Positions 31,823-36,673 of a DNA stretch of 64,000 nucleotides are shown here, one piece after another (position 1 is the stretch's first letter; the number at the start of each line of letters is the position of its first letter). The notes beneath the pieces were generated by a model. The model saw nothing but the letters and a program-made list of their open reading frames with translations. It was not told the DNA's origin and searched no databases. The stretch spans positions 2,816,001 through 2,880,000 of the forward strand of contig CM000155.2 in the NCBI GenBank assembly GCA_000004695.1. The letters are read 5' to 3'. Made by a program: the position numbers and the translations under genes. The stretch is from Dictyostelium discoideum (lineage: Eukaryota).

Positions 31823-34800
31823 ATGAAAAGTAATTCAAATAAAAGAGAATTTTCAAGTGATGATGATAATTCGAATGTAGAATCTGATTCATCAAAGAAA
31901 ACTAGAATTTCACCCCCATCAACACCGCAACCACAAACAACTACATCTTTAATACCACCACCAGTATTCAAAGGATTCAGTACAGGTAGAGGTGCAGCTG
32001 TTGTTATTTCAGAAGAGAAATTAAGACTTGCAAAGAAAAAGCTTTCTTCTATTGGTGATGAAGATATTAAAGATCTATTACCATCTGAAAGTGGTGCTGT
32101 GGATAATAGTAATGACTTTTTAACAATGACAAATAGTAATAGTAACAATAATAGCAACAGCAATAATAATGACACAATCAATACAACAGCCACCATCACA
32201 CCTACGACAACATCATCATCACCATTACTACAAACAACAACTACATCATCATCATTATCATCATCATCACCGCCACCACCACTACCACAAACAACCACTT
32301 CCTCAATACCACCAACATTCAAAGGATTTAGTACAGGTAGGGGTGTGGCTGTTGTAATCTCTGAAGAGAAGCTAAAGCTTGCACAGAAAAAGCTTTCATC
32401 CATTGCTGACGAGGATATTAAAGATTTATTACCATCTGAAGGTGGTGTTGTTGATAATAATGACTTTTTAGCAATGAATAGCAGTAGTAATAATAGTAAT
32501 GGTAGTAACAATAACAATAACAATAACAATAACAATAACAATAACAATAACAATAACAATAACAATAACAATAACAATAACAATAACAATAACAATACCA
32601 CCACCACCACAGCATCATCATCATCATCATCATCATCATCATCATCATCATCATCATCATCATCATCATCATCATCATCATCATCATCATCATCATCATC
32701 ATCATCATCATCATCATCATCATCATCATCATCATCATCATCATCATCATCACCATCACTACAAACAACTACATCATCATCGCCACCACAACTACTACAA
32801 ACAACCACTTCCTCAATACCAACAACATTTAAAGGGTTTAGTACAGGCAGAGGTGTAGCTGTTGTAATCTCTGAAGAGAAACTAAAACTTGCACAGAAAA
32901 AGCTTTCATCCATTGCTGACGAGGATATTAAAGATTTATTACCATCTGAAGGTGGTGCTGTTGATAATAATGATTTTTTAACAATGAACAATAGTAATAG
33001 TAACAATAGCAACAGCAGCCATACCAATACTACTACAACTACAACCACAACCACTACAAATACTACAAATACTACAACCGCTTCAACTTCTAATGATAAT
33101 TCAACATCGAGATCTGATGATTCGTCAGCACCCTCGTCACCTCAACCTCAACAAAATATAAGGGCACCATCCCCACCATCATCATTTTCATCATCATCGT
33201 CAACATCATCTATTGCACCACCAACAACACCAAATAGATCACCAGTACCAACATCAACAAATTTAAATTCATCAACAGCAACAGTACCACAACTAACAAC
33301 ACCAACAAAGTCTAAATACCCTCTTCAATCACCAGTAAAGAAAACATTTGTATATAATCCAAACACAACACCAACTAAAAAATCATTCATTCCACCAACA
33401 AAATCATTGTCTCCACCTCAACAGCAACAAACGAGTACTGTACCACCACAAACTAATATTGCACCAACTACAACATCTACTTTTTCATACCCAACCACAC
33501 CAAAAACAGCACCAAAAATATTAAGTAAACCACAAATTTCAACACCAAAAAAAAGTTCATTCAAACCTCCAATAAAAAGTAATAACACACCAACAACACC
33601 AACAACAACAACGACATCAACGACAATATCACCAGCTAGTCCAAATGGAAATTCAAAAGGAATATCACCTCCAAAATCAAAATTAAATATCTCACCTTCA
33701 AAAAGTACAACACCAATTAATAATAATAATAATACTAATAATAATAATAACAATAATATACAAAAGAAACCAATTGATAATAGAAGAAAATTAAAAGATT
33801 TAGGTAGACCATTTTTAGTATCATGCGAAGGATTGGTAAAGAATGATGTTCTAGAAATTACAAGTAGAAATGCATCAGAATATAGATTTGAGAATAATGG
33901 TGAAGTTAAGGATATTGGTAAATCCAAAACCATTGGTGTTGCAGATCTTTATATTTATCTAACGAAAATCAATCAATCCAATGCTGCATTGGTATCACAA
34001 GAATGGGTTAGTAATCATTATGGTTGGATCGTTTGGAAACTTGCATCAATGGAAAGATCATTTCCATTGGAATTTGGTGGTAAATATCTAAAATTACAAC
34101 GTGTTGTAAATCAATTGAAACAAAGAATTGAAATTGAAATTAATCAAGCAAAAAGACCAATCTTAAAGAAAATTTATGAAAGAGATCAACCTTCTGAATT
34201 ACCAATGGTATTATGTATTTCTTCAATTTTAGATGATGGTTATGGTGGTGGTATAAATAATAATAATAATCCAAATAATCCAAATAATAATAATAATAAT
34301 AATAATTGTACTGTTGAAAATGATGATGGTATTATATCAATGGATGATATAGATATTACAATGAATGATGATTTAGAAACAGCTTCAACTTCCACAACCA
34401 TCTCATCAACTAATAACGCTAATAATAATAATAATAATAATAATAATAATAATAATAATAATAATAATAATAATAATAATAATAATAATAATAATAATAA
34501 TAATAATAATAATAATAAAACAAATTATATTCAACATCCAATTGCAACAATTGAATTAACTGATGGATGGTATCCAATTAAAGGAGCATTAGATCCATTT
34601 TTAACACAATGTTTAAAACAAGGTAAATTATTTGTTGGACAAAAACTATATATTCAAAATGCAGGAATAGTTGGACAAGAGAATGGTATATCACCATTGG
34701 AAGATGGGTTTGAACAAGTTCATTTGAAATTATTTACAAATAGTACACGTAGAGTTAGTTGGTATGAAAATTTGGGTGCTAGGAAATCAATGTTTCCAAT

Positions 34801-36673
34801 CTCCTTAAAATCAATTATACCTGGTGGTGGTACAGTTGCATGTCTAAAAGTAGAGGTAACTCATATCTATAAATTATCATTCAAGGAAACTATAATGGGC
34901 GAAGATGGTTCACTAAAAACTGTAATTACACGTTGTGAAAATGAAGAACAACAATATAAACAACAATATGAATCTAAAGCAGAGATTGCACGTGAGAAAC
35001 TACTTGAAAGTACATCAAAACAATTGGAGAAGAAACAAAAAGAAGATATACTAATGAGTTCTTTACAAGAACAACAACAACAGAAATTAAAAGGTAAACT
35101 ATTACCAAATCAACAAAATAGAGTTAGAAAGATACCCCAATCAGCATTGGATCAGAAAATTAATCATAAAACAATTTCAAATCTTTCAGAGATTTCAGAT
35201 GGTGATTCATTATATGCTTATTTTTTACGTGTTATCGATCAAGAAGGTTTCGTTGATTGTTTATCTGATGAACAAAAAAGTTTACTCTTTAGTAATCGTG
35301 ATAAACAATATCAATCACTTCAACAACAAATACTAGATCAAGTTGATGATGAAATGAATTCTAATCCAAATTTTAAAACTAGAAATGTTAAACCAATTTT
35401 ATCAATTAAAATAAGAGATTTATTAATTAAAAATGATATTGATCAATTAAATAATAATAATCCTAATAATATTAATAATAATAATAATAATAATAATAAT
35501 CCTAATAATGATTATAATAATATATTAGATGATGATTTTAATAATAATTGTAATAATGAAACCATTTTATCAATTGAATCACCATCTTATGATTTAATGG
35601 ATACATTAAAAGAATCAATGAAATTAACATTACATATGGTTAATCCAAAGAAAATGTTTTATTCACCTTTTAGACCAACAGGATTATCACCTTTACAAAG
35701 CTCACACAGATTTAATGTTGTGCCTATTATCGATAATAACATTGGTGGTGGTGGTAGTGGTAATTCTCAAAAAAATTTAAATACAAATGGATTACATAAA
35801 AAAGGTATTCAAAGATTAGATCAATTTTTAATTAATGGTAATAGTATTGGATCAGAATGTGATTTGGTTGTATTCATTTTATATGTAGGAGATATTAAAG
35901 TTGAAGAAACTTTAATTAAAGATAGAAAAAGAATAGATTCCTCAAGGTTTATCTACTTTACTGATAGATCTGGTTTCATTGGTAGAATTAATATTACAAA
36001 AACAACATGGACTACAGGTATAACAAATGAAAATGGTGGTGGTGGTAGTGGTAGTTCTCTCATAAATCAAAACAATCAAATTTATTTTCCATTTAAAACT
36101 GGTTTCACATTAAGCGATAGTCAATCAAACAATGACAATTTATCATCACATAATCTATTAAACCCTTTTATGGTTAATAATAATAATAATAATTTACCAA
36201 TAATTCACCTATCAAATTTAATATTCAAGGGTGTGGACAGTAATCAAATACTGCTGTTCGATGGTAGTGAATTCTTTGAACACTCTGTTAAACCAAAATC
36301 AAAAAATATAGTCGATTTATTTGATGATTTAAAACAATTTATTAAATCATCACCTGGTCTCCTTAATTTGTTTTGTTTTAGAGTGAATTCAATTTTAAAT
36401 CAATTATCTACTCCTTCTCAAATTAATAATATAAAATATAATAGCTATAGCACCAACTCTAATTCTAATAATAAAATTATTGAAAAGAATAGTTTAGTAA
36501 ATAGCACTAGTAATCAAGTTAATAAAAATAATAATAATAATAATAATAATAATATTAATAATAATAATAATAATAATATTATTAATAGTAATAATAATGA
36601 ACCTGATGAAATGCCTTCATCTCAGGATTTTAACTTCGATTTCGATCCAGTTTTTTTGGAAAACTCTGGGTAA
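31823..36673 (+). CDS. BRCA2 orthologue. It has three BRC repeats, the helical domain and OB folds. Single 1616-codon exon.
   Basis: There are three repeats of FKGFSTGRG(A/V)AVVISEEKL(R/K)LA(K/Q)KKLSSI, the BRC motif F-x-T-A-S-G-K-x-V-x-I-S. C-terminal WVSNHYGWIVWKLASMERSFPLEFGG...LKQRIEIEINQAKRPILKKIYERDQP...LCISSI and IELTDGWYPIKGALDPFLTQCLKQGKLFVGQKLYIQNAGIVG align to the BRCA2 helical/OB1 domain (NHYRWIIWKLAAMECAFP...; IELTDGWYAVKAQLDPPL...GQKII). Long Asn/Ser/Thr homopolymer tracts are present. Confidence 0.85.
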   Translation: MKSNSNKREFSSDDDNSNVESDSSKKTRISPPSTPQPQTTTSLIPPPVFKGFSTGRGAAVVISEEKLRLAKKKLSSIGDEDIKDLLPSESGAVDNSNDFLTMTNSNSNNNSNSNNNDTINTTATITPTTTSSSPLLQTTTTSSSLSSSSPPPPLPQTTTSSIPPTFKGFSTGRGVAVVISEEKLKLAQKKLSSIADEDIKDLLPSEGGVVDNNDFLAMNSSSNNSNGSNNNNNNNNNNNNNNNNNNNNNNNNNNNNNNTTTTTASSSSSSSSSSSSSSSSSSSSSSSSSSSSSSSSSSSSSSSSSSSSSSPSLQTTTSSSPPQLLQTTTSSIPTTFKGFSTGRGVAVVISEEKLKLAQKKLSSIADEDIKDLLPSEGGAVDNNDFLTMNNSNSNNSNSSHTNTTTTTTTTTTNTTNTTTASTSNDNSTSRSDDSSAPSSPQPQQNIRAPSPPSSFSSSSSTSSIAPPTTPNRSPVPTSTNLNSSTATVPQLTTPTKSKYPLQSPVKKTFVYNPNTTPTKKSFIPPTKSLSPPQQQQTSTVPPQTNIAPTTTSTFSYPTTPKTAPKILSKPQISTPKKSSFKPPIKSNNTPTTPTTTTTSTTISPASPNGNSKGISPPKSKLNISPSKSTTPINNNNNTNNNNNNNIQKKPIDNRRKLKDLGRPFLVSCEGLVKNDVLEITSRNASEYRFENNGEVKDIGKSKTIGVADLYIYLTKINQSNAALVSQEWVSNHYGWIVWKLASMERSFPLEFGGKYLKLQRVVNQLKQRIEIEINQAKRPILKKIYERDQPSELPMVLCISSILDDGYGGGINNNNNPNNPNNNNNNNNCTVENDDGIISMDDIDITMNDDLETASTSTTISSTNNANNNNNNNNNNNNNNNNNNNNNNNNNNNNNNNNKTNYIQHPIATIELTDGWYPIKGALDPFLTQCLKQGKLFVGQKLYIQNAGIVGQENGISPLEDGFEQVHLKLFTNSTRRVSWYENLGARKSMFPISLKSIIPGGGTVACLKVEVTHIYKLSFKETIMGEDGSLKTVITRCENEEQQYKQQYESKAEIAREKLLESTSKQLEKKQKEDILMSSLQEQQQQKLKGKLLPNQQNRVRKIPQSALDQKINHKTISNLSEISDGDSLYAYFLRVIDQEGFVDCLSDEQKSLLFSNRDKQYQSLQQQILDQVDDEMNSNPNFKTRNVKPILSIKIRDLLIKNDIDQLNNNNPNNINNNNNNNNNPNNDYNNILDDDFNNNCNNETILSIESPSYDLMDTLKESMKLTLHMVNPKKMFYSPFRPTGLSPLQSSHRFNVVPIIDNNIGGGGSGNSQKNLNTNGLHKKGIQRLDQFLINGNSIGSECDLVVFILYVGDIKVEETLIKDRKRIDSSRFIYFTDRSGFIGRINITKTTWTTGITNENGGGGSGSSLINQNNQIYFPFKTGFTLSDSQSNNDNLSSHNLLNPFMVNNNNNNLPIIHLSNLIFKGVDSNQILLFDGSEFFEHSVKPKSKNIVDLFDDLKQFIKSSPGLLNLFCFRVNSILNQLSTPSQINNIKYNSYSTNSNSNNKIIEKNSLVNSTSNQVNKNNNNNNNNNINNNNNNNIINSNNNEPDEMPSSQDFNFDFDPVFLENSG

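Follow-up and report, generated by a model that had tools for sequence, protein, structure and literature searches.

How did the BRCA2 orthologue of Dictyostelium discoideum come to carry three closely similar BRC repeats? The question is raised by a locus in a stretch of 64,000 nucleotides (nt) from contig CM000155.2 of assembly GCA_000004695.1 (positions 2,816,001 to 2,880,000 of the forward strand), hereafter called the window, which has a GC content of 22%. At positions 31823-36673 of the window, the plus strand contains one unbroken open reading frame (ORF) of 4.85 kb, which encodes 1616 amino acids (aa) followed by a stop codon. We conclude that this ORF is a genuine and complete BRCA2/FncD1 orthologue. 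It probably encodes a BRCA2 recombination mediator in which one BRC unit and its linker were duplicated twice and then held by purifying selection, with slippage in the linker tracts coming later. The gene and its three units are located as follows, where the matches refer to a hidden Markov model (HMM) of canonical BRC repeats.

31823..36673, plus strand: complete single-exon coding sequence of the BRCA2/FncD1 orthologue (uninterrupted ORF, Pfam and PDB matches, termini aligned with those of orthologues)
31952..32125, plus strand: BRC unit 1 (aa 44-101), IPPPVFKGFSTGRGAAVVISEEKLRLAKKKLSSIGDEDIKDLLPSESGAVDNSNDFLT, the most diverged copy; canonical-BRC HMM match at aa 51-65
32306..32473, plus strand: BRC unit 2 (aa 162-217); canonical-BRC HMM match at aa 168-182
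32816..32983, plus strand: BRC unit 3 (aa 332-387); canonical-BRC HMM match at aa 338-352

The peptide F-x-GFSTGRG is present in three copies, which start at nt 31967, 32318 and 32828 (aa 49, 166 and 336), and the repeat positions agree to within a few bases with those in the preliminary description of this DNA. The start-to-start spacing of the units is 351 and 510 nt. The units had also been described as almost identical at the DNA level, including their flanking codons. Pairwise nucleotide alignment over 46 codons (138 nt) upheld this for the pair of units 2 and 3, with 8 differences and an identity of 94.2%, but not for unit 1, which is 84.8% identical to unit 2 (21 differences) and 86.2% identical to unit 3 (19 differences). 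The flanks gave a similar picture. In blocks of 300 nt that take in the P/T/S-rich linker before the unit and the N-rich stretch after it, the identity is 84% for units 2 and 3 but 64% for unit 1, and the duplicated block thus extends beyond the BRC motif into the flanking linker.

That the gene encodes BRCA2, as proposed earlier, was borne out by the helical and OB1 domains in Pfam, the BRCA2-DSS1 chains in the PDB and the fold obtained with AlphaFold2 and Foldseek. The family BRCA-2_helical (PF09169) scored 70.6 bits (cut-off 25; E 1.7e-19), covering only profile positions 113-186 of 187 (aa 702-775), and BRCA-2_OB1 (PF09103), in a region that was aligned to rat BRCA2, scored 118.8 bits (cut-off 25.6; E 1.7e-34). 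The Pfam families BRC, Tower and OB3 were all without a match in the full 1616-aa protein. The sole matches in a phmmer search against the PDB sequences were the rat and mouse BRCA2-DSS1 chains 1iyj, 1miu and 1mje (E 1e-47 to 3e-46). The C-terminal 977 aa, used as a database query, retrieved BRCA2 proteins from plants, fungi and protists, of which the top two were from dictyostelids (39% and 37% identity).

An exhaustive profile HMM search over 1.84 billion representative proteins identified only four dictyostelid-grade BRCA2 orthologues: P0001 (a dictyostelid in EukProt), P0002 (Cavenderia fasciculata DFA_00009), P0121 (Tieghemostelium lacteum DLAC_10350) and P0122 (Synstelium polycarpum). 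They are 1111-1183 aa long, compared with 1616 aa for the window protein, except P0122, which is a fused gene model of 1906 aa. In this model, BRCA2 is joined to a long coiled-coil C-terminal region (aa ~960-1906) that is SMC/Rad50-like by eye, and the fusion is probably a merged gene prediction. The single-exon gene model in the window is considered complete because the N-terminus and the C-terminus of the protein both align with P0001 and P0002. An exact match of the whole 1616-aa protein was not found in a collection of 15 billion proteins, and a single 57-aa unit used as a query against an index of 5.8 billion proteins returned no candidate. A Dictyostelium FncD1/BRCA2 orthologue is already on the list of Zhang et al. 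2009 (PMC2730050), and the FncD1 gene identifier was not found in the supplements of that paper. The searchable literature lists the Dictyostelium BRCA2 orthologue only, and no description of its BRC repeats was found there, though one may exist, e.g. in Lo et al. 2003.

The identification of the three units as BRC repeats was also correct according to profile-profile alignment and the HMM, though they are divergent enough to escape the Pfam family PF00634. Their core, F-S-T-G-R-G, is followed by V-x-I-S-x-x-x-L-x-x-A-x-x-x-L, which corresponds to an FxxG core, a glycine and the hydrophobic pattern and helix; the variant FxTG is also used by Pfam-positive BRC repeats in plants. The three window units and the single units of two orthologues were aligned with hhalign to 42 BRC repeats from BRCA2 homologues in plants, protists and one fungus; most of these proteins have a precomputed Pfam BRC annotation. 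The alignment covers 34 columns with a probability of 96.6% (E 5e-10), and its register places F on F, T on T and G on G, followed by the V-x-V/I-S strand and the L-x-x-A helix. In a local rerun, the score was 38.1, compared with 7.9 +/- 2.1 (maximum 17.6) in 200 column-shuffled controls. When the query was stripped of its FxTGxG core, what was left of it kept the register and scored 14.9 versus a shuffle maximum of 13.8, a control that holds for the query side only, the target alignment having a gap inside the motif.

Since the canonical-BRC HMM matched the window protein only at the three sites listed above, we count three units, with no further degenerate ones detected; each of the four orthologues was matched exactly once. 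The acidic extension "DEDIKDLLPSE..DNNDFL" belongs to the conserved unit of ~56 aa, and corresponding stretches are present in P0001 (IDEMIPDTNDDTEFQF) and Tieghemostelium (IEIDEGDF..EDDTEY). The position equivalent to F1546 is occupied by a hydrophobic residue (L, I or F) in a register that was set by hand. Judged by their sequences, the three ~56-aa units are divergent BRC repeats, for which RAD51 binding is only predicted. As the dictyostelid BRC repeats escape Pfam, automated annotation would report such BRCA2 proteins as lacking BRC repeats.

The number of BRC units is one in each of P0001, P0002, P0121 and P0122 and three in the window protein. Because the four other dictyostelid orthologues found have one unit each, the three units represent a gain from one. 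The window units are 84-87% identical among themselves, while unit 1 is 33-35% identical to the units of P0001 and P0002, and the duplications are therefore younger than the split from all four lineages. The copying of the BRC unit to three is thus a lineage-specific expansion and not a reduced set. The earlier emphasis on "only three" repeats relative to the eight in human BRCA2 was misleading in this respect, since the count in dictyostelids points to an expansion.

The synonymous and nonsynonymous divergences between the units, dS and dN, were estimated with the Nei-Gojobori method. They amount to 0.26 and 0.010 for units 2 and 3, 0.73 and 0.059 for units 1 and 2, and 0.65 and 0.049 for units 1 and 3, which corresponds to dN/dS ratios of 0.04-0.08. 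The proportion of synonymous sites that differ (pS) is 0.22-0.47, or 22-47%, and silent changes are in excess over replacement changes (Fisher P 1.4e-4 to 3e-7). Because the silent sites have diverged at such low dN/dS ratios, the similarity of the units mostly reflects conservation of the peptide rather than freshness of the DNA. With the published rate of base substitution in D. discoideum, 2.47e-11 per site and generation (PMC7466956), a dS of 0.26 corresponds, on a rough scale only, to about 5e9 cell divisions. Older duplications under purifying selection seem to fit these values better than fresh copies or strong homogenisation. A lineage-specific duplication is supported, but the suggestion of "recent duplication or concerted evolution" in the preliminary description overstated the case.

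Several observations weigh against the reading of three older BRC copies under purifying selection. The family PF00634 gave no match up to E 10, either with the whole protein or with each 57-aa unit, and BRC is likewise missing from the precomputed Pfam lists of P0001 and P0002. The scores of the canonical-BRC HMM are weak (3.6-8.2 bits). The second module of human BRC4 reads LFDE. In the window units, the second BRC module, defined as phi-phi-x-[E/D] (PMC12412785), is off its canonical spacing, and the best candidate, I-A/G-D-E, is located ~4 residues, or one helical turn, further along. The estimates of dS have a small basis of 46 codons only. Units 2 and 3 share a run of 70 perfectly identical nt (32378-32447 and 32888-32957), and the ~60 nt that precede it contain all 8 differences, which is unexpected under uniform divergence (the permutation P is 0.017 when all sites are counted and 0.025 when only third codon positions are). 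Finally, no orthologue similar to those expected of D. discoideum or D. purpureum was found among the 1.84 billion representatives, which leaves the duplications undated within the genus and limits what can be said about their timing and about the absence of gene conversion.

The first of these points raise the question of whether the repeated peptide could be an unrelated, lineage-specific repeat that contains F-x-T-G-x-G by chance and is not a RAD51-binding BRC repeat. This would explain the missing Pfam match, and it would also agree with a search of the unit profile against 177,635 PDB sequences, in which the top match was the BRC4 peptide in 1n0w (RAD51-BRC4) with an E value of 0.14, which is not significant alone and is level with HSP70 substrate-binding-domain chains. 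However, the profile-profile score is strong relative to the shuffled controls and the register is kept beyond the core; the units are placed N-terminal to the BRCA2 DNA-binding domain, exactly where each orthologue has one BRC-like unit, and the peptide is under strong selection. We therefore assign only a slight chance to an unrelated repeat. Another explanation is concerted evolution, in which three old units have been kept alike by ongoing gene conversion or unequal exchange, as in the array of Trypanosoma brucei. The identical run in units 2 and 3 next to a 5' part with 8 differences is in line with such a process, as is the sharing of flanking linker DNA, although the run may be either a conversion tract or small-sample chance and the hint of gene conversion is weak. 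The substantial silent divergence argues against it, and the same 70-nt stretch contains 8 positions at which unit 1 departs from the other two. Moreover, the copies are separated by differing linkers at the distances given above and do not form a homogeneous head-to-tail array. In T. brucei, the divergence between repeats is below one base per repeat (PMC2408642), whereas the window units differ at 8-21 of 138 nt, and concerted evolution is an unlikely explanation for their similarity.

It could also be argued that the copies were created by the assembly, either by false duplication of one BRC unit or by the collapse of a larger number of units, given that the region is repeat-rich with two long, pure microsatellites and that the exact protein is on record in one assembly only, GCA_054883475.1. 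However, the 8-21 differences per 138 positions between the copies are overwhelmingly synonymous, which is indicative of evolution under selection; the ORF stays open over the whole 4.85 kb, and the flanks differ from copy to copy. An artefact as the source of the three units is thus very unlikely; the exact lengths of the two microsatellites could still be mis-assembled.

According to the scenario of duplication followed by purifying selection, the ancestral dictyostelid protein contained one ~56-aa unit, consisting of the BRC core and an acidic "DEDIKDLLPSE...DFL" extension, followed by an N/T/S-rich linker. The whole unit and its linker were tandemly duplicated twice in this lineage: the first split separated unit 1 from the common precursor of the other two, and a later one gave rise to units 2 and 3. 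Since then, purifying selection has kept the peptide nearly constant while the silent sites drifted, and later replication slippage may have purified and expanded the linker between units 2 and 3 to (AACAAT)15 and (TCA)46. By comparison with the family (1n0w; PMC2408642; PMC12412785), the FxxG-x-G (F-S-T-G) hairpin of each unit is expected to mimic the RAD51 oligomerisation motif, fill the RAD51 pocket and hold a monomer, and the amphipathic helix would pack on the ATPase domain of RAD51. The helical-OB1-OB2/tower-OB3 domain, together with DSS1, would bind single-stranded DNA (ssDNA), to which RAD51 would be delivered.

Three units probably raise the avidity or cooperativity of RAD51 binding, for which there are precedents in the 100-fold avidity effect of multiple BRC repeats in moss (PMC12412785) and in the effects of repeat number in T. 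brucei (PMC2408642). The four dictyostelids with one RAD51-binding unit and the window protein with three provide a natural contrast within the clade, and as dictyostelids are haploid and permit gene replacement, the relationship between BRC copy number and RAD51 loading is testable, as in T. brucei. In other respects, the presence of the gene is expected and its repeats evolved in an unremarkable way.

The window protein shares its architecture with the other dictyostelid BRCA2 proteins: BRC-like unit(s) at the N-terminus, a linker rich in S, T and P that carries FxxP motifs flanked by basic residues, the helical-OB1-OB2/tower-OB3 domains and an acidic-aromatic tail. The others differ in having one unit, whereas the window protein has three and far more homopolymer sequence. 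Among the trypanosomes, BRCA2 of T. brucei has 14 identical repeats, that of T. congolense has 2-3 very similar repeats, and their relatives have 1-2 (PMC2408642). The arrays in T. brucei and T. congolense (Hartley and McCulloch 2008, PMC2408642; PMC3553974) are similar to the window units in that BRC repeats were gained in a lineage-specific manner relative to close relatives, the repeated unit exceeds the 35-aa motif in length and the copies are far more alike than in vertebrates and plants. The gain in copy number is thus shared with the homogenised array of T. brucei, but its near-identical head-to-tail copies are not, as the window has three copies that are 6-15% diverged (84.8-94.2% identity, dS 0.26-0.73), with low-complexity linkers and a spacing of several hundred nt.

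An expansion of the BRC array is also known from dmbrca2 in Drosophila yakuba (PMC2882388), which similarly shows a recent and serial change in BRC copy number in a narrow clade. In D. yakuba, however, the polymorphism is documented both within populations and between species. Human BRCA2 shares the FxxA/G-x-G core, the BRC hydrophobic pattern and helix and the full fold of the DNA-binding domain, and FxPP-type motifs may be placed between the BRC repeats and the DNA-binding domain in the window protein, like PhePP. It differs in that its 3418 aa include eight divergent repeats (BRC1-8) in one large exon. Compared to the human BRC repeats, the dictyostelid units carry a G where FxxA has its A, and their acidic module is shifted by about one helical turn. 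No counterparts of the PALB2-binding and TR2 regions of human BRCA2 were identified in the window protein. More modestly put, the three-unit dictyostelid BRCA2 is a mild case of the BRC expansion already known from trypanosomes and flies. As a separate observation, the protist protein P0114 (ENA) contains five nearly identical tandem BRC repeats (GGFSTAGGNKLQVSEASKNKAASFMQEFEEE) at aa 14-261 and a sixth that reads GFSTGRG, and it represents another independent, homogeneous BRC array.

After every unit, the linker has the same order, being N/S-rich, then T-rich and then S-rich, and the longer linker, between units 2 and 3, contains two pure tracts that were delimited with Tandem Repeats Finder (TRF).

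32506..32597, plus strand: (TAACAA)15 microsatellite in the linker between units 2 and 3, encoding N30 (aa 229-258); TRF 15.3 copies, 100% matches
32613..32758, plus strand: (TCA/CAT)~48 microsatellite in the same linker, encoding S46 (aa 265-310); TRF 48.7 copies, 98% matches

Together with a 15-nt ACC spacer, the tracts cover 253 bp and encode N30, T5 and S46. This is consistent with the ~250 bp of (AACAAT)n followed by (TCA)n that had been noted between the units, and TRF confirmed their purity; the translation did not reproduce the accompanying lengths of N40 and S60. The 64-kb window contains 12 perfect trinucleotide arrays of at least 10 units, including (TAT)41, (AAT)35 and (TAA)33, and (TCA)46 is the longest of them but is not different in kind. 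In D. discoideum, homopolymer-coding repeats are very abundant and polymorphic, and the rate of slippage is high (PMC3460934, PMC7466956). The N and S tracts thus belong to the ordinary homopolymer load of this genome and are not special to the BRCA2 gene, and by analogy it is plausible that the two tracts are hypervariable. A 417-aa antisense ORF at 31801-33054 on the minus strand, which is rich in poly-D, poly-L and poly-V, and two off-frame ORFs that overlap the BRC and microsatellite region, 32418-32768 on the minus strand and 32499-32858 on the plus strand, were dismissed as mere products of the repeated codons. Such spurious ORFs across this region could mislead gene callers.

The structure of the C-terminal part was predicted with AlphaFold2 for aa 640-1616, with a mean predicted local distance difference test score (pLDDT) of 69.8 and 580 residues at or above 70. 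The parts with low confidence are the homopolymer or low-complexity inserts and the tail, and nothing else. The model contains the helical domain and all three OB folds, OB2 bearing a cap and a long tower of two helices, together with two terminal helices; the domains are placed as follows.

33791..34177, plus strand: BRCA2 helical domain (aa 657-785), from AlphaFold2 helices with pLDDT ~90 and Pfam PF09169 at aa 702-775
34205..34753, plus strand: OB1 (aa 795-977) with a 97-aa insert, from Pfam PF09103 and AlphaFold2 strands
34835..35419, plus strand: OB2 and tower (tower aa 1039-1180, nt 34937-35362), from AlphaFold2 and a Foldseek alignment to 1miu_A over 887 columns
35558..36286, plus strand: OB3 (aa 1246-1488) with two low-complexity loop inserts, from AlphaFold2 strands, Foldseek across the whole domain and columns conserved in dictyostelids

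A Foldseek search with the model aligned 887-923 columns to 1miu, 1mje and 1iyj (E 3e-31 to 1e-25), with template modelling scores of 0.48-0.54 when normalised by the target, and RPA70 and other OB-fold proteins ranked far below these BRCA2-DSS1 structures. The tower consists of two long antiparallel helices (model residues 400-453 and 510-541) and a helical cap (467-507). The structure prediction hence supports the earlier view that the DNA-binding domain is intact, whereas Pfam alone identified a partial helical domain and OB1, without Tower and OB3. Binding of DSS1 and ssDNA by the window protein is suggested by the conservation of the fold. The DNA-binding domain contains several long low-complexity inserts, which are located in loops. 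The insert in OB1 (34238-34528) is an N-rich, disordered stretch of 97 aa that includes a pure (TAA)33 encoding N32. Because this insert is placed at a site where rat BRCA2 has a gap of 13 residues between its two aligned stretches, homopolymer expansion appears to be tolerated inside the folded DNA-binding domain.

Two candidate motifs of the FxPP type, both flanked by basic residues, are located between unit 3 and the DNA-binding domain, and the protein ends in an acidic-aromatic tail.

33356..33418, plus strand: candidate FxPP (P-type) recombinase-binding motif 1, NPNTTPTKKSFIPPTKSLSPP (F522), KKSFIPPTKS, which resembles the PhePP and FIGNL1 peptides
33530..33592, plus strand: candidate FxPP motif 2, PQISTPKKSSFKPPIKSNNTP (F580), KKSSFKPPIKS, which resembles P-motif peptides
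36608..36670, plus strand: acidic-aromatic C-terminal tail, EMPSSQDFNFDFDPVFLENSG (QDFNFDFDPVF), with similar tails in dictyostelid orthologues

The two observed FxPP sites compare with 0.135 expected from the composition (Poisson P 0.008). The four orthologues contain FVPP, FKPP, FVSP, FISP and FKVP in basic contexts, at positions that are not cleanly aligned. Known P-motif peptides include TKVFVPPFKTK in PhePP, KAFQPPRS in TR2 and GKFVPPIPK in FIGNL1, and they stabilise RAD51 and DMC1 filaments (PMC11229353, PMC11436757). This class of motifs, which has an F/W-x-P-P core among basic residues, also includes that of RAD51AP1. The two sites in the window protein resemble these vertebrate PhePP/TR2-type P-motifs, and their binding to a recombinase is putative. 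The tails of the orthologues read IDFNFNFMD in P0001, VNFDFDIDP in P0121 and DFQFDFDD in P0002, and the acidic-aromatic tail may be a partner-binding motif. It is possible, if doubtful, that the dictyostelid unit represents an extended RAD51-binding module of ~56 aa, composed of the FxxG core and an acidic-aromatic extension, which binds in a mode unlike that of human BRC4 and acts alongside two FxPP P-motifs. If so, the control of recombinases by two classes of motifs (A-motif and P-motif) would be older than the divergence of Amoebozoa from animals, and this species, a genetically tractable haploid, would provide a natural series in which the dosage of the A-type module runs from 1 to 3.

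Upstream of the BRCA2 gene, the minus strand encodes an archease (30362-31142), for which manual splicing gave four exons and 151 aa, matching a called product of 151 aa with PF01951. A perfect trinucleotide array of 32 units, (TAT)32 on the plus strand, is located in the third intron of the archease gene at 30546-30641. The convergent neighbour on the other side (36833-39817, minus strand) is an ORF of 994 aa, with a called product of 1142 aa, for which there was no Pfam match. It contains a very long poly-N stretch from (TAT)41 (37969-38091 on the plus strand), and its C-terminus is highly acidic and D/E-rich. Three tRNA genes were identified in the window.

20863-20944, plus strand: tRNA Leu-AAG
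24202-24275, plus strand: tRNA Met-CAT
24392-24463, plus strand: tRNA His-GTG

The genes for tRNA Met and tRNA His are located ~120 bp apart.

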